The notes under the pieces: generated by a model
Database searches by the model: none
Told to the model about the DNA's origin: nothing
What the model saw: only the letters and a program-made list of their open reading frames with translations
Program-made: the position numbers and the translations under genes
DNA from: Bacteroidia bacterium
GTDB taxonomy: Bacteria > Bacteroidota > Bacteroidia > NS11-12g > UBA9320
Assembly: GCA_965216465.1 (NCBI GenBank)
Contig: CBDCFW010000003.1
Span: 318,323-382,322, forward strand
Direction of reading: 5' to 3'
Length of the DNA: 64,000 bases
Part shown: positions 775 to 64,000 of the stretch, piece after piece
How positions within the stretch are numbered: position 1 is the stretch's first letter
Layout: every line of letters starts with the position of its first letter

Positions 775-1466
775 TATTAAGAACTTACATACCAATTCTG
801 GCACTTTGCATAATAGCAATTGGGTGTAAATCTTCAAAACTGGCTCAAAACAACAACAATTCATTTGTAGGAAAAATAGTCTACGATATCATCGTTGAAG
901 GGGATTCCCAAAATATAGAGGATATTCAAAGAGCAAAAGAGCTTTATGGTAATACTTTAGAACTCAGCATATTTGAAAACGGCGATATTTTGATGAACTA
1001 CAACGGCAGTCCAAAAGGCTACGATTTGAGCTACATCGACGTTAACGAGAATGAACTCACCGAGAAATTCAATTCGTCAGATACGCTCTACGTACGCCCT
1101 GCGTCAAAACAAAATGTTAAAAAGCTCACCGATATTCGTCAGAACGATAAAACTATTGATGTCCTGAACCACGAATGTAAGGCGGTATCACTTTCTGCAG
1201 AAGATCAAGAAAGCAAGCAATATCTAACCATAAAATACTGGTATAGTAATGACTACAAGGTGGATGCCACTCGGTATAGTTCTATAAATGAAGACCTTAT
1301 GGGCTACCTCTTTCAAAAAAGCAACGGTGGTATCTTTCTTCGCAAAGAGATCAGCTACTCAGGCTACAGCATAACCTTCGTTGCTAAAGAAATTAAAAGA
1401 ATAACAGCCGAAGACCTCGGAGATCAACACAAATACAAAACGTCTACAGTTATTTTGGAAGAGTAA
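771..1466 (+). CDS. Hypothetical lipoprotein (possibly DUF4412/GLPGLI-like)
   Basis: Signal peptide with lipobox IAIGC; 'VLNHECKAV...YWY' resembles GLPGLI/DUF4412 proteins. Confidence 0.6.
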   Translation: MILRTYIPILALCIIAIGCKSSKLAQNNNNSFVGKIVYDIIVEGDSQNIEDIQRAKELYGNTLELSIFENGDILMNYNGSPKGYDLSYIDVNENELTEKFNSSDTLYVRPASKQNVKKLTDIRQNDKTIDVLNHECKAVSLSAEDQESKQYLTIKYWYSNDYKVDATRYSSINEDLMGYLFQKSNGGIFLRKEISYSGYSITFVAKEIKRITAEDLGDQHKYKTSTVILEE

Positions 1467-1865
1467 CTATAGAACTGCAGCGTAGCTAACACCATCTGTT
1501 ATTTCACAGCCCGATTGAATCATATCGAAAAGTTCTGACTCACGTTCTTTTTTGTAAGATTTAGAGGCAACTTGTTTCACCATTTTATCTCCGTTTCTAA
1601 TAATTCGGATGAGGTGAATTTCTGTCTCATCACATTTGAAATAGTAAGCAATGCCTTCTTCTTTCTTTTCTAAATATTCAGTTTTGCGTAACACCCCTTC
1701 CCAAATTACATCACTAAATTGGTCAATAATAGCCTCAGAAGCTTCAGAATCTTCTTCTTTTAGCTTAACCCAATCGTCTGCTGTTATTCCATTAACTACC
1801 AAGAAATCAATGAATTCTTTCTCCAAATTATGCAGCTCTTCTTCCGGCAATCTTGAATATTTCAT
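1467..1865 (-). CDS. DUF6495 family protein
   Basis: MKYSRL..EEL..LEKEFIDFLVVNGITADDW is the characteristic N-terminus; ATG at 1865 follows a TAGCTTTG -7 element. Confidence 0.8.
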   Translation of the reverse strand: MKYSRLPEEELHNLEKEFIDFLVVNGITADDWVKLKEEDSEASEAIIDQFSDVIWEGVLRKTEYLEKKEEGIAYYFKCDETEIHLIRIIRNGDKMVKQVASKSYKKERESELFDMIQSGCEITDGVSYAAVL

Positions 1866-1904
1866 ATTTAAGAGCTGCAAAGCTAATTATCTCAATGGCA
1901 ATAT

Positions 1905-1912
1905 TACCTTTG
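1905..1912 (+). promoter_or_regulatory. Bacteroidota housekeeping promoter -7 element (TACCTTTG) for slyD
   Basis: Exact TAnnTTTG match 5 nt upstream of the ATG. Confidence 0.6.
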
Positions 1913-1917
1913 CGCCA

Positions 1918-2409
1918 ATGATAATCGAGAAAAACAAAGCGGTTGGGGTTCACTATCAACTAGAAGTAGATGGTGCAAAACTAGATGCATCTGGTGATCA
2001 ACCATTAATGTACTTACACGGTCATGGAATGATGATTCCAGGATTTGAAAGACAATTAGAAGGTCTTAAAGAAGGAGACAAGTACGATTTTAAGGTTGCA
2101 CCTAAAGAAGGGTATGGTGAATATAATCTTGAAGCCGTAGCTCCTCTAGATAAAAACATTTTTATGATTGACGGTAGCATGAGTCCTGATGTATTTGAAG
2201 GTGCTCAACTGAGACTTACTAACCAAGATGGTCATCCAATGATCGGTGTGGTTAAGTCAATTGAAGAAGATACAGTAACCATGGATTTCAATCACCAATT
2301 AGCTGGAAAAGAACTTCATTTCAGCGGTCACATTGCTAGCATTCGTGAAGCAACTGAAGAAGAAATCAGCCACGGTCATATTCATGGACCAGGTGGACAT
2401 CACCACTAA
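1918..2409 (+). CDS. slyD: FKBP-type peptidyl-prolyl isomerase SlyD
   Basis: YLHGHGMMIPGFE, P.EGYG, DFNHQLAGKELHF, His-rich tail; start reassigned to ATG 1918. Confidence 0.93.
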   Translation: MIIEKNKAVGVHYQLEVDGAKLDASGDQPLMYLHGHGMMIPGFERQLEGLKEGDKYDFKVAPKEGYGEYNLEAVAPLDKNIFMIDGSMSPDVFEGAQLRLTNQDGHPMIGVVKSIEEDTVTMDFNHQLAGKELHFSGHIASIREATEEEISHGHIHGPGGHHH

Positions 2410-2427
2410 GAAACACTGAAATTTATT

Positions 2428-2463
2428 AAAAAAAGACCGTCCTTTTGGTACGGTCTTTTTTTT
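2428..2463 (+). terminator. Intrinsic terminator (bidirectional-type)
   Basis: A7-GACCGT...ACGGTC-T8 after slyD. Confidence 0.8.
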
Positions 2464-2561
2464 ATGACTTTGCGAATCGGTGTACAAGTGAATTGTTGTT
2501 GATTGAACAATAAGCCTATTTTCGTCACCTTACTAAAACTGAAATATTAAATCTGTGCCTC

Positions 2562-3653
2562 ATGACACGCCCTACAATTAAGTTCAATAACACCACCAAT
2601 ATCGAGTTTATAAAAGCACTTCGAACCAATGTAAACAAGTACTTTGTTGACAACAATATCTCGCGATACGGAAATTTCAACCTATATTTTAAAACACTCT
2701 TCATGATTGCGGTGTACTTCGTTCCACTAGGTCTAATGCTTAGTGGTGTTATACAAAACACAGGTGTGATGTATCTTATGTGGGTCATTATGGGGTTTGG
2801 TATGGCCGGTATTGGGCTGACCATTATGCACGACGCTAACCATGGTTCATATTCGAAGAATAAAAAGGTTAATGAGGCGTTTGGGTTTATCCTTAATTTT
2901 TTAGGGGGATACCACATCAATTGGAAGATCCAACATAATGTTCTTCATCATTCCTTTACAAATATCCATGAACATGACGAAGACATTTCTAAACCTGTAA
3001 TGCGGTTTACACCAAACCAAGAGCACAAAAGCGTGTACAAATATCAAGCATTTTACGCTCCCCTATTCTATGGATTGCTTACGATATATTGGTTCTTGGC
3101 TAAAGACATTGTTCAACTCATAAATTATGGTAAAAGAAACTTGCTAAAAGCTCAAAAAAAGAGCTTTAGAGGCGCATTGATCGAGATCATATTTCATAAA
3201 ACCTGGTACGTCATCTTAACCTTGGTTCTTCCAATTTGGATAATGGATATTGGTTGGGGGCATGTGGTGGCAGGTTTCTTTATTATGATGTTCATTAGCG
3301 GACTCATTTTGGCACTCATTTTTCAATCGGCTCATGTTTTAGAAGAAACCCAGTTTTTTGAAGCAGGTGAAGGGGGCAGTATGGAGAACAATTGGGCTAT
3401 ACACCAACTGCTAACCACAGCAAATTTTGCGAATGGAAATAAGCTGCTTACTTGGTTAATTGGAGGCTTAAATTATCAGATTGAGCACCACCTTTTCCCA
3501 ACTGTTTGCCATGTGCATTATCCAAAAATTGCTGGTATTGTAAAAGAGACGGCATTGTCATACGGCATTCCCTATCATCAACACAAAACGTACTACGGTG
3601 CATTAAAAAGTCATTTTACCCTACTGAATGATTTAGGACGAAATCGAATTTAG
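2562..3653 (+). CDS. Membrane fatty acid (acyl-CoA) desaturase
   Basis: His boxes HDANH, HNVLHH, QIEHH. Confidence 0.92.
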   Translation: MTRPTIKFNNTTNIEFIKALRTNVNKYFVDNNISRYGNFNLYFKTLFMIAVYFVPLGLMLSGVIQNTGVMYLMWVIMGFGMAGIGLTIMHDANHGSYSKNKKVNEAFGFILNFLGGYHINWKIQHNVLHHSFTNIHEHDEDISKPVMRFTPNQEHKSVYKYQAFYAPLFYGLLTIYWFLAKDIVQLINYGKRNLLKAQKKSFRGALIEIIFHKTWYVILTLVLPIWIMDIGWGHVVAGFFIMMFISGLILALIFQSAHVLEETQFFEAGEGGSMENNWAIHQLLTTANFANGNKLLTWLIGGLNYQIEHHLFPTVCHVHYPKIAGIVKETALSYGIPYHQHKTYYGALKSHFTLLNDLGRNRI

Positions 3654-5192
3654 GGCTGCAATTGCTTTAATTACCCGCTGACCATCCATAGCTGCACTAA
3701 TAATTCCACCGGCATAGCCTGCACCTTCCCCACATGGGAATAAGTTTTTAACTTCTGGATGCTGCAGTTCTTTGGTTCGCGGTATACGTACAGGAGCACT
3801 AGTTCTGCTTTCTGGAGCTGTAACAATGGCATCCTTATGTGCAAATCCCTTCAGTTTATTAGTCATTTCTCTTAAGCCTTCACGCAATCTATAATTAACC
3901 TCTTCAGGATATAGCTCGTTTAAATTGCAAGCTGTCATTCCAGGATGGTAACTGCTTTTATTTAAAGCCTTAGTCTCTTCATTGTTTAGATAGTCAATCA
4001 AATTTTGAGCGGGAACTTTAAACTCCCCTCCTCCCATTTCAAAAGCCTTTTTCTCTATAAATTGTTGAAAACGTAAACCGGCTAGTGCTCCATATTGCCT
4101 AAAATCAGCCCATTCATCTTCTCCTATTTCTGTAACCCAGCCGCTGTTCGCAAATTCACCGTTTCGTTTACTCGGGCTCCATCCGTTAACCACCACTTCT
4201 TCAAATGATGTGGCCGCTGGAGCAATAATTCCTCCTGGACACATACAAAATGAAAAGGCTCCCTTGCCTCTTACTTGAGCCACGAGGCTATAACTCGCTG
4301 GAGGAAGTAATTTAGCATTCTGCTCATTGTGGTATTGAATTACATTAATCAACTCTTGAGGATGTTCAATCCTAAAGCCCATAGCAAAGGGTTTGGCCTC
4401 AATTGCAATATTGAGTTTATCGAACAGCTCATAGATATTACGGGCTGAATGTCCCGTTGCGAGTACCACTTGTTCACAAGTCTCATAATTGCCATTGATT
4501 TGTACTTCAGTTATTTGGTCGTTGTCAATTTTTAGTCCATCAAGTTTGCTTTCAAACCTCACTTCACCCCCATGATCAATGATAGTTTCTCGTAAACTTT
4601 CGATAATCTGAGGAAGTTTATTGGTACCGATATGAGGATGAGCTTCGTACAGAATGTTTTCATTTGCTCCATGAAGCACAAAGTATTCTAAAATCGACCT
4701 AATCTTTCCACGTTTATGTGATCGAGTATACAGCTTTCCGTCTGAAAATGTACCTGCCCCGCCTTCGCCAAAACAATAGTTCGACTCTTCGTTCATTTCC
4801 CCTTCTCGATTCAGTTTGGCTACATCACGACGGCGATCTTTAACCGCTTTTCCCCGTTCAATAACAATAGGCTTCAACCCCATTTCTAAACACTGCAAAG
4901 CAGCAAATATTCCAGCTGGCCCAAACCCTATTATATGCACAGTTCCACGCTGCGGTTTTTTAAATTCAGGGAGTTTTAAATCTTCAGGGAAATCGTTGTC
5001 GGTAAAAACCTCCAAACGCAAGTTGTATTTTATATTCTTCTTTCTGGCATCCAGCGACTTACGGAGAATGACAACATCATTAATCTCCGAGGCGTTTTTA
5101 CGCTTCAACCTACAGTAATAATCAACAGGTGATAATGCAAATTTTGAGTACTCTTTTAAGGCAATGCTAAGCTCTACAATCTCTCTGGCCAC
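3633..5192 (-). CDS. NAD(P)/FAD-dependent oxidoreductase
   Basis: IIGFGPAG, FGEGGAGTFSDGKL, SFCMCPGG, GEGAGYAGGI. Confidence 0.88.
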   Translation of the reverse strand: MAREIVELSIALKEYSKFALSPVDYYCRLKRKNASEINDVVILRKSLDARKKNIKYNLRLEVFTDNDFPEDLKLPEFKKPQRGTVHIIGFGPAGIFAALQCLEMGLKPIVIERGKAVKDRRRDVAKLNREGEMNEESNYCFGEGGAGTFSDGKLYTRSHKRGKIRSILEYFVLHGANENILYEAHPHIGTNKLPQIIESLRETIIDHGGEVRFESKLDGLKIDNDQITEVQINGNYETCEQVVLATGHSARNIYELFDKLNIAIEAKPFAMGFRIEHPQELINVIQYHNEQNAKLLPPASYSLVAQVRGKGAFSFCMCPGGIIAPAATSFEEVVVNGWSPSKRNGEFANSGWVTEIGEDEWADFRQYGALAGLRFQQFIEKKAFEMGGGEFKVPAQNLIDYLNNEETKALNKSSYHPGMTACNLNELYPEEVNYRLREGLREMTNKLKGFAHKDAIVTAPESRTSAPVRIPRTKELQHPEVKNLFPCGEGAGYAGGIISAAMDGQRVIKAIAALNSISS

Positions 5193-7520: not shown

Positions 7521-8471
7521 ATGACAAACCTTACCTCAATGGAGAAAAAAGACACACGATCAGGATTTGGAGATGGCCTATACGAGATTGGCTTGCAAAA
7601 TGATGCTGTTGTAGGCTTATGTGCAGACCTTACAGGATCATTAAAAATGAATAAGTTTCAAAACGAATTTCCTGAGCGCTTTTTTCAAGTAGGAATCGCT
7701 GAGGCGAACATGATGGGTCTTGCAGCTGGTTTAGCTACTGCAGGCAAAATTCCTTTTACAGGAACCTTCGCAAACTTCAGCACAGGAAGGGTGTACGACC
7801 AAATTAGACAGTCAATAGCGTACTCGCACAAAAATGTAAAAATATGTGCATCTCACGCAGGTTTAACGCTTGGTGAAGATGGGGCCACGCACCAAATTCT
7901 CGAGGATATTGGTTTGATGAAAATGCTTCCAGGTATGACCGTAATTAATCCTTGTGATTACAACCAAACAAAGGCTGCGACCATGGCTATTGCCGAGCAC
8001 TACGGGCCAGTTTACCTTCGTTTTGGTAGACCAAAATGGCCTATTTTTACAGAAGCAGGTAAATTTGAGATTGGTAAGGCACTTCACATGCGTCCTGGTA
8101 AAGACGTAACCATATTTGCTACCGGTCATTTAGTTTGGAACTCGTTAGAGGCTGCAAAAGCCCTTGAAGCGGAAGGAATCTCAGCTGAAGTTATCAATAT
8201 TCACACCATTAAGCCATTGGATGATGAAGCAATTCTAGATGCCTTAGCAACTACCAAATGTGCTGTTACGGCAGAAGAGCACCAAATGAATGGTGGATTA
8301 GGTGATAGCATTTGTCAACTGTTGGCTAGAAAAAGCCCAATGCCGGTTGAAATGGTTGCTGTAAACGATAGCTTTGGTGAAAGCGGAAAACCAGAAGACT
8401 TATTAAATAAATATGGTCTAGGCGTTAATGACGTTGTAGCAGCTGCTAAAAGAGCAATCGCTAGAAGATAA
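7521..8471 (+). CDS. Transketolase, C-terminal subunit
   Basis: [28 protein letters not shown]. Confidence 0.93.
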
Positions 8472-57393: not shown

Positions 57394-58418
57394 TCGTTTA
57401 TGGTGTAGGTGTACAAACCTTGATTGGTGAAGTGGTAGTTGTATTCTTTCACATTGAATTTTTGAAGCGAGCGAATCAATTGATGGCGATTTACTTCTGG
57501 ACAATAGAAAAAGAAGAAACCTCCTCCTCCTGCCCCACTGATCTTGCCTCCAGAAGCTCCATTGGCTATAGCTGTTGCATAAATTTCATCTATTTCAGGA
57601 TTGCTTATTCCTTCTGCCATTTTCTTTTTTGATTCCCAGCCGTAGTGCAGAACGCTGCCGATTGAATCAATTTCTCCAACGAGAATAGCTTCCTTCATTT
57701 TTACGCTTTGTTCTTTTAAGCGATGAGTAGCTTGAAGAGCTTGCTCGTCGTTTCCGGTAATATTCGATGTTTGTTTTTCGATAATTTTAGCAGACTCTCT
57801 ACTTGTTCCCATGTAAAACAACACCAGGTTATGTTCAAGCTCAGCCGCATATTTACGTTTTATCCGTAATGGGTTTACTATAACCTTGTCGTCTTTATAG
57901 AACTCCATGAAATTAAATCCACCAAATGTAGCTGCGTACTGGTCTTGTTTTCCTCCTGCGAGGTTGAGATCTTTTCTTTCAATCTCATAAGCGAGATTGG
58001 CAATATCATATTCACCTAGTGGAATCTTACACCATTCTACAAAAGCACCTAAAATACTGACTACTAAAGTGCTTGAGCTGCCAAGTCCTGATCCTGGAGG
58101 GGCATCTACAGCTGTATACATTTTAAAAGAAAGTGGCTTTTTAACGTAGTCTTTTACAATGCGATTGTATACACCTTTTAGCAGGGCTAGCTTTCCAGAA
58201 GGATCTAGAAATTCGGATGATGCAAGCGTTTCACTTTCTTGCATGTCTAAAGCTTCGAGATGAATTTCGTTGTTATCGGTTGGAATAATCGTGGTATGTG
58301 CAAACATGTTAATGGTTGCATTCAATATAGAACCGCCGTATATATCTGAATAAGGGCTTACATCGGTTCCTCCTCCAGCAAGGCCTAGGCGGAGTGGAGC
58401 TTTACTTCTGATTATCAT
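57390..58418 (-). CDS. hddA: D-glycero-D-manno-heptose 7-phosphate kinase (GHMP)
   Basis: APLRLGLAGGGTD, PPGSGLGSSS, GGKQDQY, KISGAGGGG. Confidence 0.9.
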   Translation of the reverse strand: MIIRSKAPLRLGLAGGGTDVSPYSDIYGGSILNATINMFAHTTIIPTDNNEIHLEALDMQESETLASSEFLDPSGKLALLKGVYNRIVKDYVKKPLSFKMYTAVDAPPGSGLGSSSTLVVSILGAFVEWCKIPLGEYDIANLAYEIERKDLNLAGGKQDQYAATFGGFNFMEFYKDDKVIVNPLRIKRKYAAELEHNLVLFYMGTSRESAKIIEKQTSNITGNDEQALQATHRLKEQSVKMKEAILVGEIDSIGSVLHYGWESKKKMAEGISNPEIDEIYATAIANGASGGKISGAGGGGFFFFYCPEVNRHQLIRSLQKFNVKEYNYHFTNQGLYTYTINE

Positions 58419-58494
58419 TGGCACAAAAATAAAAGCTTAGCTAGTGAATTAAGCACACCTGGATGTTATTCATCCATTTTTTTCGACTATTTAA

Positions 58495-58902
58495 TTATTG
58501 GTAAGCTTGAAGGCGTTCGGTCAGTGTTTCGACCGAATGGCCTTTTCCTTTAAAGCGTTCTTTCTCTTCACCATCTTTAAAGATGAGGATTTGCGGGAAG
58601 CCTGGAACACCATAATGCTCTGAAATGTCTTCATTCTCTTCATACTCTACTTCGTAAAATTTAACAAAAGAGAGGTTAGCATCTTCTGAAGCTGTTTCAA
58701 CTGCAGGACGTTGTTCTTCGCATATCTTGCACCATGAAGCATGAAAAAATACAAGAGAAACTCCTGAAGAAACATTCGTTTGAAGGTCAGACAGACTGTT
58801 GACATCTGTAATTTCATTTAGACTGGTATCTACCAATTCTTTTTTGCAAGAAGTAAGGGTTAATGCGGTTAGAGCTAGGCTTAAAATGAATAATTTTCTC
58901 AT
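58495..58902 (-). CDS. Thioredoxin-family lipoprotein
   Basis: LTSC lipobox; FHASWCKIC, GFP. Confidence 0.85.
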   Translation of the reverse strand: MRKLFILSLALTALTLTSCKKELVDTSLNEITDVNSLSDLQTNVSSGVSLVFFHASWCKICEEQRPAVETASEDANLSFVKFYEVEYEENEDISEHYGVPGFPQILIFKDGEEKERFKGKGHSVETLTERLQAYQ

Positions 58903-58993
58903 GATGAATTATAGCGAAGATGGTAAAAAAAGCTGACGATTAAAATGAAAATCAAAAAGATGATAATTATATGTTATAATTTAATGAAAAATG

Positions 58994-59001
58994 TAAATTT
59001 G
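58994..59001 (+). promoter_or_regulatory. -7 promoter element (TAAATTTG) for tRNA(CAT)
   Basis: TAnnTTTG match 12 nt upstream of the tRNA. Confidence 0.6.
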
Positions 59002-59013
59002 CACCCTCATTAT

Positions 59014-59087
59014 GGCGGGGTAGCTCAGATGGTTAGAGCGTCGGATTCATAACCCGGAGGTCGGCAGTTCGATTCTGCTCCCCGCTA
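59014..59087 (+). tRNA. tRNA with CAT anticodon (elongator Met; Ile2 not excluded)
   Basis: GGCGGGG/CCCCGCT acceptor, TTCATAA loop, GTTCGATTC T-loop; CCA not encoded. Confidence 0.92.
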
Positions 59088-59092
59088 CTAGA

Positions 59093-59128
59093 AAAGAGCT
59101 TTCACCTTTTGGTGAAGGCTCTTTTTTT
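59093..59128 (+). terminator. tRNA terminator
   Basis: AAAGAGCTTTCACC-TTTT-GGTGAAGGCTC-T7. Confidence 0.85.
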
Positions 59129-59131
59129 ATT

Positions 59132-59199
59132 TTAGAGCGGGACATAATCGAGGCTTATCCGCCGGAATAAAATGGAGGCGGGATTCTGCTCCTTGCTAC
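59132..59199 (+). pseudogene. Decayed partial copy of the adjacent tRNA(CAT)
   Basis: TTAGAGCG, GGA, CATAA, AGG and GATTCTGCTCC..GCTAC are collinear with the tRNA. Confidence 0.7.
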
Positions 59200-59228
59200 A
59201 AAGCTGTTCATCCGTGGACAGCTTTTTT
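59200..59228 (+). terminator. Second terminator after the decayed tRNA copy
   Basis: AAAGCTGTTCA-TCCG-TGGACAGC-T6. Confidence 0.75.
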
Positions 59229-59261
59229 CATTTGTCAAATTGAAGGAATGTAATTATTCAG

Positions 59262-59391
59262 TTGTAACGGTTTGAATATGGTGCCTTTGGCATTTTAACA
59301 CTTGATTTTTCATATTACTATTATAATTCTTAAGTACTATTATCTTCAACTTTAACACCATCTGTCAAATGCATAATATTCTTTGTTAGGC
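59262..59391 (-). other. attC-like recombination site (130 bp)
   Basis: Minus strand GCCTAAC (contains the stop codon of the upstream gene) ... GTTACAA; 19-bp imperfect inner stem. Confidence 0.6.
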
Positions 59392-60129
59392 TCCGTACAT
59401 TTCTTTCTTGCGTCTCTCTTGATATTTCTTCTCATATTTAAAGTTTCTATTCAGATATTCATCAATTTGACTGATTAATAAGAAGTATTCGGCTAATCTT
59501 CTAGGAATTCGTCCGTCTCTTGCATTTACAAATTCTTGTTTTTGTGGAATTATTTCTCTTCCTGCCGCATTAAACAATTCTGAATCCTTAATGGAATTAA
59601 GAATTTTGACAAGCTCAATGTCCAAATGCGGTAAAATAATGAATACTTCATTAATGTATTCTTCAGCTTCCTTTACTACTATATATTTCAAATATTCAAA
59701 CCAATTGTAGTTTCTTTTCATTAGACTAGTTGAGCAATGAGAATCAACAGGATCAAGTTTATTGAAAATCCTTAATAGTTCTTCCTCATCTAGTGGAAAA
59801 GTCAAGTTCTCAACTTTTGAGTTGATTATTAATCCTCTTGATGCTCTTGCTGCTCCTATGCATATATACGACAATCTTCTTTGTAAGTATTCAGCTGTGT
59901 TTTCTTTTGCTTTTTGTCGGGGGATAAAAACAACAATAAAATTAAAAATATAACTTACAACATAACCAATGGCAAGGCTACTTGAGATAATTCCAAATTC
60001 GTATCCAAACCATACTTTTTCTTCCCATTTCATTAAAATTAGCCAAGACAAAATAATAGACATTGAGATAAATAGGCCTCTCAACAGCCATTTTTCATTC
60101 TTAACATATAGTTTCAGATATTTAAACAT
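59386..60129 (-). CDS. Hypothetical membrane protein (two N-terminal TM segments), cassette-like
   Basis: 247-aa AT-rich ORF bounded by two attC-like sites. Confidence 0.75.
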   Translation of the reverse strand: MFKYLKLYVKNEKWLLRGLFISMSIILSWLILMKWEEKVWFGYEFGIISSSLAIGYVVSYIFNFIVVFIPRQKAKENTAEYLQRRLSYICIGAARASRGLIINSKVENLTFPLDEEELLRIFNKLDPVDSHCSTSLMKRNYNWFEYLKYIVVKEAEEYINEVFIILPHLDIELVKILNSIKDSELFNAAGREIIPQKQEFVNARDGRIPRRLAEYFLLISQIDEYLNRNFKYEKKYQERRKKEMYGA

Positions 60130-60155
60130 CGGCGCTCTATTTTATTCATTATTGT

Positions 60156-60215
60156 GGCTAACGTCTCCGCTATGAAACGTGTCCTGAAGGGCATGTTTTA
60201 TAGCGATTGTTGGCA
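60156..60215 (-). other. attC-like recombination site (60 bp)
   Basis: Minus strand TGCCAAC ... GTTAGCC; 17-bp inner stem fully paired on the + strand with three G:T pairs. Confidence 0.65.
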
Positions 60216-60229
60216 GTTCGTGTTTTCAT

Positions 60230-63200
60230 TTATTCCTTGTATTTGTTGTGAATCTCAATGAGAAATTCATGTCCTTGCTTTGCCATCTTGTTGCAGAATT
60301 CATCAGCAATTTGTTTTTGACCATTCTCATAAAGATATTCTACTAAGCTAATAATGTGTTTGTTATCAATGGAGGAAAAGTAAGGAGCAAACTGTATTGA
60401 GTTCAAAATAACTCCTACATGTTTAGCAGACTCATTTGGATTACCTCGGTCTTTAAGTTTGATAAGATTTTGGATGAGATAGTGAGAATGAAAATGTTTA
60501 TCAGTAATACCACTTGACTTCAAAACCAAATCTGTACAAGTGTCGTTTAGCTCAGGAACAAAAACAAGAAGATTTGAAAGTGCTGCTAAAACTTCTTGTT
60601 CTTCTTTGCCAGTTGCCTTGTCGTACTTCTTAGCTAGGTAGTTCCACAAATTGTAAATTAATCCTTCAAAGTTCTTTGCCTCAGCCAGATTCAAACTTTT
60701 TAAATAACTTTCTTGCCGCCAAACAAAATTTACAACTTCAAGAATACTTGCGTGATTGCCCTTATTGAAAAGCATTGTTAGCAAGCCTTTCGTCTGCAAA
60801 TCTTCAAAACCCCAAAAGTAAAAAGCAACAATGTGTCTAATAATTCCGTGGTCGTGAAAACTTTTTATCTGAATATTATTCTTGATTGCTTTTTCATAGT
60901 GCGGGTAAAACAACTGATAAATGTCTTTATTAAATGGTGGATTGCCGAAGGCAAATCCACTCATAAAAGCAAGCCAGTATTTATCTTCAATTTTGTAATA
61001 CTCTTTTACTTTACTAGTTATCCAATCTTTATCTAAGAAATAGAATTGTTGGAAATACCAACCAGTGAGAATGTAACCATCAATTATTCCCTTCTTAAAA
61101 GTTTCTTCCAACAAATCTTTAATCTCTTTTTCCCACTTGGGTAAATTATCTTCTGCTTTTAAGTTTCTTGCTCTCCTAAGTGAATAGTCAAGCAGAGTTC
61201 TGAGTGTTTTACCGGCAGTGGAATTCAGCGAATAGGTTGGATAGTCCATATTTGTTTGTTTGAAATCATCTACTGGCTTTAACCTTGGAACAATAATTTC
61301 AAGAATATCCTTTGCTACTGGAAGAAGCGATAAATCAAATGCGTTACTATCTGACTGCATTCCATCAGTCAAAAGATCTCCAACTGAACCTGTAACCCAA
61401 TCCGCTGTCGCTCCCCAACCATCATTTTCCAAACGAAATTGTCCTGATGTAAATTTTTCGTTTGTGATATACTCCTTGTAGAAATTCAAGACCTTTTCCC
61501 AATTGAATGACTTTTTATTTTTCCATGCTTCTCTAAAACCTTTGGCAATATGGTATGTATAGATGTAGGGAACATCCTTATAAAGTTCAATCTCATCAGA
61601 AAATTTCTGAGGCTCGTTTTGGACGGCTGCACTTAATGAGTTTGAAAGTCCGTCAATGGTTGGTTCTTCCCAACGGTCTTTTGGTTTGAAGTTATTAATG
61701 AACTTGACAATTTCCTGATTGCTTTTTTGAAGTATTTCTTCTACGCTGAAAGGAGAAACCGAACCAACTCGTGTTTTTATCACACCCAAATTTTCATAGT
61801 GTTCATTAGTCAGGTTTTCCGCTTGTGAAAGTTTTTCGTAACTGTCTTTGAACGGAGAAATATTTCTTAACGCAGAATACCAACGTAACTGCCAATAATT
61901 CTTATAATTTGAGTCTTTATCTTCTGTTTTATCCTGAGGACCTAAATCAATTATTTTTTGAAGTGATGAGATTTCTTCCTGACTCAACAAATTTTGGTTC
62001 TTATTGAGCATTTCATAAAGGTCTTTATTAAAACTGTGGTCTGAAAAAAGCAGCATTGGGTCATGCTTTTTTACAATTTCCCAGAACAAACTTTTACATT
62101 CTTCCCAATTCTCTCCAATTACATACAGGACAACTCTTCGGAAAAATGGTAGTCGGTATTTGTTCTCGGTGGCAAAAGATTTTAGTAGTGAAACTCCTTC
62201 CTCTTTTTTTTGCTTAACCTTGTCATTAAGAAGGTTTCTAAAGATTAAAGAAAAAACCTCAACAGCTTTGTCTCCGTGATGGTGGTGGTCATTTAGTTTG
62301 CTTATAGTATCGTCTGAGAAGGAATAATATGAGCCATTTGATAAAGCGTTTAACAGTATTTCAACATCGAATTCGTTGTCTTTGTGTCCTTCATATTCTA
62401 ACCCTAACTCTTTTAGAAAAGCAAGGAAGAAATTTTTTACTTGCTCGTCAGTTAGACTTTCAAACTTCTCAATTGTTTTAGTTCCAATGGATTTTTGACC
62501 ATTCTCCTTTTCTGAAATTTGTATGTTCAAGTTTTCGGTTTCAATCTCAGCTTTACAGTGGTAGCTCTTGTCTTTTATCTTGAGTGAAAAGTTAATTCCT
62601 TTTGGGAAATCAAATCTCAGCGTTTTAATTTTTTCTGCTAAGTCGATAATGATATTATCCGAACAATAAGCTGCAATTTTTGAAGTTAGGTTTTTATCAA
62701 TTAAAGCATCCTTTAAATAGTGCATGTAAATTCTAGAACTGTAGCTTTCCACATCAATCCCTAATTTATCTTCTTTTTTAACTTCAACTTTTTCAATAGT
62801 CAAAAGATATTTTAAGATCAATTCGGCTTTTTGGATGTCATCTGCTGTTGGGTTTTTAGATAGAAATTTTGGAAGTAGATTCTCACATATCTCTGAACTC
62901 TGAAGCATTGTATCAAAACTCCCTTTGAGCCAAGTAGGAATGAATTTTAATGTTTCTAATGGAATTTTTTCTTTAGGAAGGTTGGTCAATATCTTTATGA
63001 ACAAATACCAAGTTCTGTAATTGTCAACTGGATTTTGAGAAGCGTTGTTGATGATTAAAATTATTTCATCAATAAGTTCAAGAGATTTTCCATTCTTGAT
63101 TCGGAGTGAAAGTTTTTCAAGGTAAATAAGTGGCTCCCAAAAAGGAATTTGAAACCCTTCTTTTACTTGAATTGGGGAAGGATTGTGTGATGGATTAAAG

Positions 63201-64000
63201 ACTCCTCTTTCTTTTAATATTTTGAACCAAACACTGCTCTCAACTTTTTTGAAAAAATATTGCTTGTAGCTTTCATCTGAATCAACAAGTCCTAATGCAA
63301 AAAGAACTTGCTCCTTTGTTGGACTTGTGGTTTTGAAAATGAGGTCTAAATGGTTAATATTTTCAATGTAAGAATCTCTTAGTCCTTTTAAGTTCTCCAG
63401 CGATTGAGGATTTAAAACTGCACTTGCAAGTTTTTTATCTTCTTCTTTAAGAGCTTTCAGCTTTTTGTATTGAGAAGCATCTGGAAGATGAGATGAGTTC
63501 TCATGAAAAAATCGTTTGAGGTCAATGTAATATCCGATTTGCAGTTTAGTGAATTCAGATTCTAAGTCAGGATGAATTTTACTTGAATCATCTCTATGGC
63601 TGAAATCTGTGTAATTGTTGGTTACAAAAACACAATTGGAAAGATTGTTAGATGAAATGTAGTCGGTGATGCTTAGGAAAATGTAAGCATCTCCAATGCT
63701 ATTCTTTTTTCCAAAAGGTGCTTTCTTCTGTTCAGCTAATTCTATTGCCTTTAATTTGTAATCGTTGGTGATAGGAATTTTGACAGCGTAGTTATCAAAA
63801 ATTGCCTCAACTCTTTTTAGTTGCTCTTCAACTCTGTCATTTAGGTTATCAGGTGTCATTAAAACACTTACCACATCAGTTGAGAAAACCTTCTTGGCTC
63901 TATTGAAAAACGATTTCCAATCGTTTACTAGAGTTTGTTTTTTGTTGTCTCGGTTTCTTTTCCACTCGTCAATAACATTTTCAGGGAGTAATATTTTGAC
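60230..64000 (-). CDS. Large PIN-domain (DUF4935-like) protein with long helical C-terminal region; 5' end outside window
   Basis: Frame is open to 64000 (VKILLPENVIDEWKRN); KKAPF...SIGDAYIF, FVTNNYTDFS...IHPDL. Confidence 0.75.
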   Translation of the reverse strand, partial: VKILLPENVIDEWKRNRDNKKQTLVNDWKSFFNRAKKVFSTDVVSVLMTPDNLNDRVEEQLKRVEAIFDNYAVKIPITNDYKLKAIELAEQKKAPFGKKNSIGDAYIFLSITDYISSNNLSNCVFVTNNYTDFSHRDDSSKIHPDLESEFTKLQIGYYIDLKRFFHENSSHLPDASQYKKLKALKEEDKKLASAVLNPQSLENLKGLRDSYIENINHLDLIFKTTSPTKEQVLFALGLVDSDESYKQYFFKKVESSVWFKILKERGVFNPSHNPSPIQVKEGFQIPFWEPLIYLEKLSLRIKNGKSLELIDEIILIINNASQNPVDNYRTWYLFIKILTNLPKEKIPLETLKFIPTWLKGSFDTMLQSSEICENLLPKFLSKNPTADDIQKAELILKYLLTIEKVEVKKEDKLGIDVESYSSRIYMHYLKDALIDKNLTSKIAAYCSDNIIIDLAEKIKTLRFDFPKGINFSLKIKDKSYHCKAEIETENLNIQISEKENGQKSIGTKTIEKFESLTDEQVKNFFLAFLKELGLEYEGHKDNEFDVEILLNALSNGSYYSFSDDTISKLNDHHHHGDKAVEVFSLIFRNLLNDKVKQKKEEGVSLLKSFATENKYRLPFFRRVVLYVIGENWEECKSLFWEIVKKHDPMLLFSDHSFNKDLYEMLNKNQNLLSQEEISSLQKIIDLGPQDKTEDKDSNYKNYWQLRWYSALRNISPFKDSYEKLSQAENLTNEHYENLGVIKTRVGSVSPFSVEEILQKSNQEIVKFINNFKPKDRWEEPTIDGLSNSLSAAVQNEPQKFSDEIELYKDVPYIYTYHIAKGFREAWKNKKSFNWEKVLNFYKEYITNEKFTSGQFRLENDGWGATADWVTGSVGDLLTDGMQSDSNAFDLSLLPVAKDILEIIVPRLKPVDDFKQTNMDYPTYSLNSTAGKTLRTLLDYSLRRARNLKAEDNLPKWEKEIKDLLEETFKKGIIDGYILTGWYFQQFYFLDKDWITSKVKEYYKIEDKYWLAFMSGFAFGNPPFNKDIYQLFYPHYEKAIKNNIQIKSFHDHGIIRHIVAFYFWGFEDLQTKGLLTMLFNKGNHASILEVVNFVWRQESYLKSLNLAEAKNFEGLIYNLWNYLAKKYDKATGKEEQEVLAALSNLLVFVPELNDTCTDLVLKSSGITDKHFHSHYLIQNLIKLKDRGNPNESAKHVGVILNSIQFAPYFSSIDNKHIISLVEYLYENGQKQIADEFCNKMAKQGHEFLIEIHNKYKE

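Follow-up and report, generated by a model that had tools for sequence, protein, structure and literature searches.

The right-hand end of the 64,000-nt stretch of DNA analyzed here (the window, G000:C3:318323-382322, from a Bacteroidia bacterium; its right edge is the end of contig C3) carries, at positions 59262-64000, two co-oriented genes on the minus strand, each followed by a foldback element. The last 204 nt of C3 (window 63797-64000) are identical to C1:1-204, the start of another contig of the assembly; C3 and C1 therefore abut inside the larger gene, and the locus can be read on into C1 (L001). The first 37 codons of this gene and its 5' core, GTTGGCGGTC, lie outside the window, in C1:205-353; no repeat is visible at this break in the assembly. 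The initial annotation of the window had taken the two genes for a hairpin-bounded cassette array with non-canonical attC-type sites (attC being the site that closes an integron cassette), and this view either stands or is strengthened with regard to the site family, the cassette ends, the recombinase, and the defense cargo. We conclude that 59262-64000, together with C1:1-353, is very likely the distal (tRNA-Met-proximal) end of a two-cassette, integron-like chromosomal array. Its parts are listed below, where R1 denotes a covariance model of the site family and ORF an open reading frame.

60230-64000, continuing to C1:315, minus strand: cargo of cassette 1, a large ORF of 1293 aa in all
60156-60215, minus strand: site B, a short-type attC-like site that closes the large cassette (R1 match and DNA fold)
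59268-60161, minus strand: unit of cassette 2, 894 nt, opening with the TT in GTTAGCC and closing with the G in GTTACAA
59386-60129, minus strand: cargo of cassette 2, a 247-aa ORF of no known family
59262-59391, minus strand: site C, a degenerate long-type attC-like site that closes the 247-aa cassette (R1 match)

The two foldback sites and their family

The R1 model was built from an alignment (A2) of seven long sites from five other genomes, with zero window sequence in the training set, and was run over 59100-60300 with filters off. Both foldbacks were matched end to end on the gene strand and at exactly the boundaries that had been drawn for them in the initial annotation. Site B scored 29.6 bits (E 3.6e-6; model positions 1-131, with the center deleted), and site C scored 17.5 bits (model positions 1-131), which corresponds to an E value of 0.0015 over 1.2 kb and of 0.32 over 260 kb. 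The layout of site B is TGCCAAC-AAT-17-bp stem-TTCA-stem-GAGAC-GTTAGCC, that is, a long-type site minus its central ~70 nt. Folded as DNA, its plus (bottom) strand reaches −12.8 kcal/mol (z −3.9, with 0 of 200 shuffles as good), compared with −7.5 kcal/mol (z −1.55) for the minus strand. All 17 of its 17 stem positions pair, with three wobbles and zero bulges, and the three non-Watson-Crick positions are all G:T on the plus strand, exactly as had been described. Site C has a GC content of 0.28 and is bounded by the cores GCCTAAC (R'', 59385-59391), which contains the stop codon of the 247-aa gene, and GTTACAA (R', 59262-59268). The strings TAACG-N7-TATG and ATA-N5-TGTTRG, which had drawn attention to the pair, do occur in both sites on the plus strand. 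We read site C as an AT-rich, decayed member of the R1 family and site B as an intact one.

One explanation that dispenses with cassettes is that the foldbacks are terminators, repeats resembling MITEs (miniature transposable elements with inverted repeats), or chance palindromes, and that the genes are ordinary island genes at a tRNA hotspot. It can draw on the tRNA-3'-like remnants and terminator hairpins that flank the island, on the insignificant folds of site C and of a hairpin upstream of the large gene (see below), and on the absence of a second copy of either window hairpin from the genome by BLAST. This last result also means that the window hairpins are not a sequence-repeat family, and Rfam held no family matching either site. 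An intrinsic terminator, however, has a T run after its hairpin, and neither foldback is followed by one: the gene strand continues with GAGACGTTAGCC after site B and with GTTACAACTG after site C, in contrast to the tRNA terminators nearby, which do have T runs. Likewise, a MITE or a repetitive extragenic palindromic element pairs its own two ends and occurs in many copies, whereas here each hairpin is a single copy and pairing links the AAC and GTT ends across the gene, where an inserted repeat would pair with itself. Given also that the R1 matches are significant and that GTT and AAC are the exact limits of gene-unit homology in eight genomes, this explanation is already disfavored, and we consider it highly improbable.

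In public sequencing runs, contigs of other organisms match the site B hairpin alone (60160-60215; run X1, record 8, with 6 differences), and in run X3 the outer end of site C (59265-59295) is matched by other-organism contigs at high summed depth. These partial matches indicate that short-type sites recur elsewhere too.

The two sites belong to a large family with covarying stems. RNAalifold predicted 14 pairs for A2, nine of them with compensatory changes. Among 21 sites, in an alignment fitted to the model, 92.4% of cells are paired, as against 60% after shuffling, with no slid register coming close, and 13 of the 14 stem pairs change on both sides, a count reached in 0 of 500 shuffles. A larger set comprises 95 sites from 30 loci, 93 of them with flanks; AAC...GTT is present in 86 of the 93, and the length of 83 of these 86 is 121-127 nt (median 124 nt). 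The family cores are NGCYAAC-A and AAAMC-GTTRKS. In this set, whose alignment was also fitted to the model, 93 of the 95 sites show A:C at one stem position of the top strand, which makes it a G:T wobble on the bottom one; at a second position, 29 sites have A:C and 1 has G:T. Site B carries both A:C positions. Bulges are sporadic, and a fixed extrahelical base is absent, in keeping with the earlier remark that no extrahelical bases were obvious. In 15 of the 21 sites, the bottom strand is the better folder, with a mean difference of −1.1 kcal/mol (Wilcoxon p 0.03). From the conserved strand asymmetry, we infer that the sites fold as single strands.

Like these sites, the attC sites of integrons drift in sequence and keep their fold, and they share an overall layout of AAC/GTT cores, an unpaired spacer, and a foldback. 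The differences lie in three features. The cores of canonical attC sites are RYYYAAC and GTTRRRY, as compared with NGCYAAC and GTTRKS in the R1 family. The length of attC sites ranges from 57 to 141 nt, unlike the near-constant 124 nt of R1 sites. Finally, canonical attC sites rely on extrahelical bases for strand choice, and R1 sites have an invariant A:C/G:T position instead. In the structure paper on VchIntIA, the segment specific to IntI is said to contact these extrahelical bases.

The same data bear on the possibility that the units are true cassettes but move by double-stranded, Xer-like recombination, in which strands are exchanged twice at the AAC/GTT cores and the foldback is incidental or regulatory. 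The absence of a fixed extrahelical base would suit such a mechanism. On the other side, covariation at 13 of 14 pairs amid sequence drift points to selection on a fold, the two asymmetric stem positions together hold 122 A:C cells against 1 G:T cell, so that only one strand folds well, and the length is held within a few nucleotides (121-127 nt). We rate this possibility as unlikely.

Further sites with the shared geometry, which the initial annotation had proposed to look for, were found with R1 across Bacteroidota, although none more in the window's own genome. They occur in 79 of 151 Bacteroidota genomes sampled across the phylum (50 of 89 genera), at 1-20 per genome and mostly in co-oriented clusters, and in 32 of 40 relatives, including 18 of 24 from the same genus. 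A simple scanner for AAC/GTT cores plus a stem was dropped, as it overlooked known sites and matched coding DNA.

Cassette ends and cargo

The integron model predicts a particular pairing partner for the AAC-ending 10-mer of a cassette: the GTT 10-mer that opens this same cassette at its 5' end, and not the one past the foldback. We took each stretch between two consecutive detected sites as a cassette and scored the seven variable positions of the 10-mers. Across 58 cassettes, the score was 4.95 of 7 for the own end (often 7/7), 2.81 for the adjacent core, and 2.62 for random pairs; the own end outscored the adjacent core in 39 cassettes and fell short of it in 6, with 13 ties (Wilcoxon p 5.6e-6). 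In the window, cassette 2 is complementary to its own end at 4 of 7 variable positions versus 1 of 7 for the adjacent core, and the large cassette at 5 of 7 versus 2 of 7. The argument had originally been made from the 247-aa gene, whose stop codon does lie inside GCCTAAC; the reverse complement of this heptamer agrees with the upstream GTTAGCC at 6 of 7 positions and with GTTACAA at 4 of 7, and what held for this one gene generalizes to the 58 cassettes in other genomes. Such pairing across the gene excludes inserted repeats and terminators, points to exchange at or beside GTT, and matches the logic of a circular cassette. In a few arrays (L077 and L078 in G125, L079 in G090), identical GTT 10-mers (GTTAGAGCGC; GTTGAAGAAG) stand after many successive sites, which hints at repeated identical cassette starts or at a spreading unit.

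Homologs of both window genes are bounded by the same kinds of ends. The large ORF is preceded, in gene orientation, by GTTGGCGGTCATGCTG; a GTTGGCA-like core had been predicted here, and ~35 nt ahead of the start codon, C1:347-353 does read CGCCAAC (GTTGGCG on the gene strand). The gene has homologs at 12 loci, 54-89% identical, which belong to Algoriphagus marincola DSM 16067 and to metagenome-assembled genomes that carry the labels Bacteroidia, Bacteroidales, Saprospiraceae, Chitinophagales, Segetibacter, and Bacteroidota. Seven of the 12 (L027-L033) and the window share sequence that begins exactly at GTT(A/G)GCGGTCATG and has unrelated flanks, and the unit ends with ACGAACCGCYAAC or a close variant (...ACGCGTAAC in L031 and ...CCGCTAATC in L032), such that its two ends are mutual inverted repeats. 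The foldback that follows AAC is the window's 60-nt hairpin in L029, and it is ~125 nt long with different stems in L028, L030, and L033.

A homolog of the 247-aa protein (82% identity) is encoded in MEOH01000023.1 of Bacteroidetes bacterium GWF2_38_335 (L002), inside a cassette array whose co-oriented row encodes AAA_21 plus RloB, the 247-aa homolog, NTase-HEPN, an unknown gene, OmdA, a methyltransferase, and MazG. DNA similarity between the window and L002 is limited to the stretch from ~GTTAG, ~30 nt before the start codon, through GCCTAAYAA at the stop, and the foldbacks on either side of the gene are unrelated. For both genes, then, the shared sequence is confined between GTT... and ...AAC, as had been anticipated for homologs of cassette genes. 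Different foldbacks on homologous genes would be expected under the double-stranded mechanism considered above, if exchange is possible at either core.

Several repeats are associated with the row in L002. Just upstream of it, a 21-nt unit (AAGCAAACGTCGCTCATGTCA-like) is repeated in tandem ~16 times (2885-3241), and an 8-nt tandem repeat follows (3514-3569). A 42-nt element, GGAWTRAAAAGCGYAAGTTTGTG...ATTCWAGTTGGC, which ends in GTTGGC, precedes two different cassettes (3702-3743 and 7909-7950, 83% alike) and may be a promoter-bearing or attI-like piece.

Defense-type cargo, as proposed for the array, is borne out for the large gene only. Its product matches the PADLOC profile of Dsr1 (defense-associated sirtuin 1) at 3.2e-122 (residues 566-1255 against profile positions 552-1225), so that the C-terminal ~700 residues are Dsr1-like. 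The N-terminus differs: Dsr1 has a SIR2 domain, and the full-length homolog in L030 (89% identical) has an N-terminal PIN_12 domain (1.2e-18), of nuclease type. No SIR2 domain was found in the large protein or in this full-length homolog, and no solved structure related to the large protein by sequence was found. Judged from these domain matches, PIN_12 in place of SIR2 is a putative effector swap relative to SIR2-bearing Dsr1. The combination of PIN_12 with a Dsr1-type C-terminus is conserved at 54-89% identity across several Bacteroidota orders (L027-L038). The 247-aa protein had no match in Pfam, PADLOC, or NCBIfam, and its Atlas neighbors are all named 'hypothetical protein'; in translation, its N-terminal stretch looks hydrophobic by eye, and we take it for a putative membrane protein.

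The array-linked recombinase and the proposed mechanism

In three genomes (G041, G043, and G044), a 374-376-aa protein or a remnant of it is encoded upstream of the arrays on the same strand. The G041 protein scored 220.6 bits against TIGR02249, the model of the integron integrase IntI, under the cut-off of 265. Its closest solved relative is VchIntIA (2a3v), although it aligns in two pieces only: where IntI4 has 71 residues it has 29, i.e., ~40 fewer at the IntI insertion. It aligns gap-free to XerC-like 4a8e and XerA 5hxy, which, together with the missing insertion, counts in favor of double-stranded Xer-like recombination. The suggestion that a different recombinase might serve these sites thus fits the array-adjacent enzyme, which is not a canonical IntI. 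It differs from IntI further in lying mostly upstream on the cassette strand; in 'inverted-integrase' integrons, found in Treponema and others, the recombinase gene and the cassettes also share orientation, but those integrases retain the IntI insertion.

Of nine homologs or C-terminal remnants in five complete or nearly complete genomes, seven have a co-oriented site within 2 kb downstream, and in G169, 14 co-oriented sites span ~32 kb. The recombinase is present in 50 of the 151 genomes, and R1 sites in 41 of these 50 versus 38 of the 101 without it, in tallies uncorrected for relatedness. On the divergent side of the G041 recombinase gene there are no sites, these being on the other side, and around the homolog in G042 no R1 site was found within 38 kb. 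A search for related loci with the recombinase returned eight, most of which end at a contig end just downstream. A subgroup of ~40% identity and 280-320 aa is divergent from its arrays (G114, G090, G102, and G103). The last 30-70 codons of the recombinase gene recur as remnants at array heads (G144:C1:1138602-1138781 and 2492109-2492255; G062:C1:1077216-1077368; G125:C2:133051-133254; L092 2211-2297); it seems that the 3' end is part of a conserved platform or that 5' deletions are recurrent.

By association, we favor the insertion-less recombinase over canonical IntI as the partner of R1 sites. The alternative is that these are ordinary cassettes under a canonical IntI, with R1 sites as one more attC family, the window as a plain CALIN, and the insertion-less recombinase as a passenger or an enzyme with another role. 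The attC-like layout of the sites speaks for it, as does the presence in 50 of the 151 genomes of canonical IntI, which could act on R1 sites; its TIGR02249 matches exceed the cut-off, reach 497 bits, and mostly cover the full length. The genome G062 has four R1 sites at a distance of 4 kb from a canonical IntI. However, the two track each other weakly, R1 sites being present in 29 of the 50 genomes with canonical IntI and in 50 of the 101 without. In five complete genomes, the 10 kb around canonical IntI contain no significant R1 site; the single match at E up to 10 scored 12.7 bits (E 1.6), in G154, and in that genome the array divergent from IntI has another site family, ending ...AAACGC(A/C)GGGTCGTTATA. 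The cassettes in G062 are oriented towards intI, not away from it. Moreover, neither the window, in line with the initial annotation, nor its genome contains a TIGR02249 match above the cut-off. We therefore regard this alternative, too, as having little likelihood.

The array in G154 (L090, G154:C1:3489000-3508999) is a divergent row of small ORFs at 1050-4640 beside a canonical IntI (TIGR02249, 424 bits), with separators of ~110 nt, where one is readable whole, that end ...TTAAACGC(A/C)GGGTCGTTATA. By published surveys, arrays of this kind would count as In0.

A CALIN is a cluster of attC sites without an integron integrase (Cury et al., 2016, PMC4889954), for which at least two such sites within 4 kb and no intI in the vicinity are required. 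The window resembles one in having two R1 sites within 1 kb and no integrase nearby or genome-wide; the difference is that a CALIN is defined by the attC model of IntegronFinder, and the window sites are defined by R1. With integron cassettes of class 1 and Vibrio, which are moved by IntI, the arrays described here share co-oriented short genes that are each followed by an imperfect foldback, ...AAC/GTT... cores with an unpaired spacer, complementary cassette ends, as for a circle cut between G and TT, and a cargo of defense, toxin-antitoxin, and unknown genes.

At the family level, each cassette opens with GTT and seven variable bases and closes with the complement of these seven and AAC; next come a foldback of ~124 nt (60 nt in one case here) and the GTT of the following cassette. 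A tyrosine recombinase would cut at or next to the G-TT step in the folded bottom strand, and a cassette with its site would be excised as a circle and reinserted in integron fashion. The enzyme would be the IntI-related recombinase without the IntI insertion, usually encoded upstream on the same strand, as its association with the arrays suggests. We see about an even chance that Bacteroidota hold a second, undescribed integron lineage, with an IntI-related, insertion-less recombinase at the head of co-oriented arrays, sites of ~124 nt whose recombining strand is marked by an invariant G:T in place of extrahelical bases, defense genes as cargo, and a presence in about half of the species sampled, which is missed by the standard tool, and that the window is an orphan array end of this lineage at tRNA-Met.

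Apart from the occurrence of canonical IntI, several observations weigh against reading the locus as an integron-like array. The protein in L030, which is 89% identical to that of the window, is followed by a long site, and the one in L029, at 75% identity, by the window's short site. If sites simply travelled with their genes, as the plain integron model has it, such differing foldbacks on homologous genes would not be predicted; they need site replacement or exchange at both cores. Stems of 17-19 bp had been proposed for both window sites, and only that of site B folds significantly; the 130-nt element of site C folds no better than its shuffles (z −0.41 on the plus strand, −1.09 on the minus strand). 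The hairpin upstream of the large gene (C1:356-388), tried as a further member of the family, was rejected at 8.2 bits (E 0.16); its fold is insignificant (z −0.3 and −1.0), and the opposite strand is the one that folds better. In the family, the two strands differ only modestly in fold energy, the covariation and A:C counts come from the model-fitted alignments, and the genome-level tallies are uncorrected for relatedness. No excision or insertion joint was present in public contigs of four runs over 58400-64000, in which rare forms are invisible; uncovered stretches in runs X2-X4 were left uninterpreted, and none of the public runs listed for the region is of RNA. Finally, the window's genome has no other R1 match at E up to 1 and no array-linked recombinase, only Xer-like tyrosine recombinases.

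The tRNA-Met flank, the orphan array, and its significance

With no such recombinase and no further site in the genome, the window array is an orphan; nor does C1 contain a recombinase remnant upstream of the large gene. This copy is probably static and could move only if a recombinase were supplied in trans. The window itself is thus a decayed two-cassette remnant, which is the more modest result of this work. On its tRNA side, the array is flanked by the following features.

59201-59228: second terminator
59180-59200: tRNA-3'-like remnant, kept in relatives, as is the second terminator after it
3' of tRNA-Met: terminator hairpin, present in relatives too
59014-59088, plus strand: tRNA-Met (CAT), by ARAGORN; Rfam tRNA, 62.7 bits
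58495-58902, minus strand: thioredoxin-like gene

The tRNA gene, the remnant, and both terminators make up the fixed flank of the array. Two relatives (G008 and G014) align with the window up to 59201/59228 and are divergent beyond. Arrays on the tRNA-Met side, convergent with the tRNA as in the window, are also found in G036, G026, and G025, that of G026 being headed by a remnant of the recombinase C-terminus; these arrays indicate that the window array sits at an old, conserved place. The position beside a tRNA, to which the initial annotation had pointed, thus holds as far as tRNA-Met adjoins the array, but this is a conserved chromosomal spot and there is no obvious recent insertion. Repeated modules occur 3' of tRNA-Met (window 59126-59228; L001 600-760; L005 340-430), each combining a terminator hairpin with either a tRNA-3'-like remnant (GGATTCTGCTCC...) or a GACATAAKSR... 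box. In the window's genome and in the relative G014, the variable region lies between such modules, which look like stacked attachment-site remnants of a putative integrase-borne island.

Integrons are the textbook device for gene capture and shuffling. For complete genomes of Bacteroidetes, the IntegronFinder 2 study lists nothing beyond In0 and a single complete integron, that of Salinibacter (PMC9024848), and two Bacteroidota genome papers state that IntegronFinder found zero integrons (PMC13700133, PMC11523902). Ghaly and colleagues list Bacteroidota among the phyla with integrons (2021, PMC8618304; 2022, PMC9668308), and a 2024 preprint places the phylum among clades earlier found to be without them (10.1101/2024.07.02.601686). 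Recombinases without the additional domain, which is held necessary for attC recombination, 'are not IntI' in the wording of Cury et al. (2016, PMC4889954). Since the surveys report so little in Bacteroidetes, R1-type sites are probably missed by the attC model of IntegronFinder. We found no description of these Bacteroidota arrays in the full-text literature, subscription journals and supplements being outside its scope.

Taken together, integrons have been held rare or absent in Bacteroidetes, and a system with integron logic is found here in 79 of 151 sampled genomes. If this is confirmed, one more site model would have to be added to the tools that detect integrons, and the arrays would offer a natural test of single-stranded site recognition without the IntI insertion or extrahelical bases. 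They would also constitute a large unexplored pool of cassettes, including defense genes, in a phylum that is abundant in the environment and in the gut.

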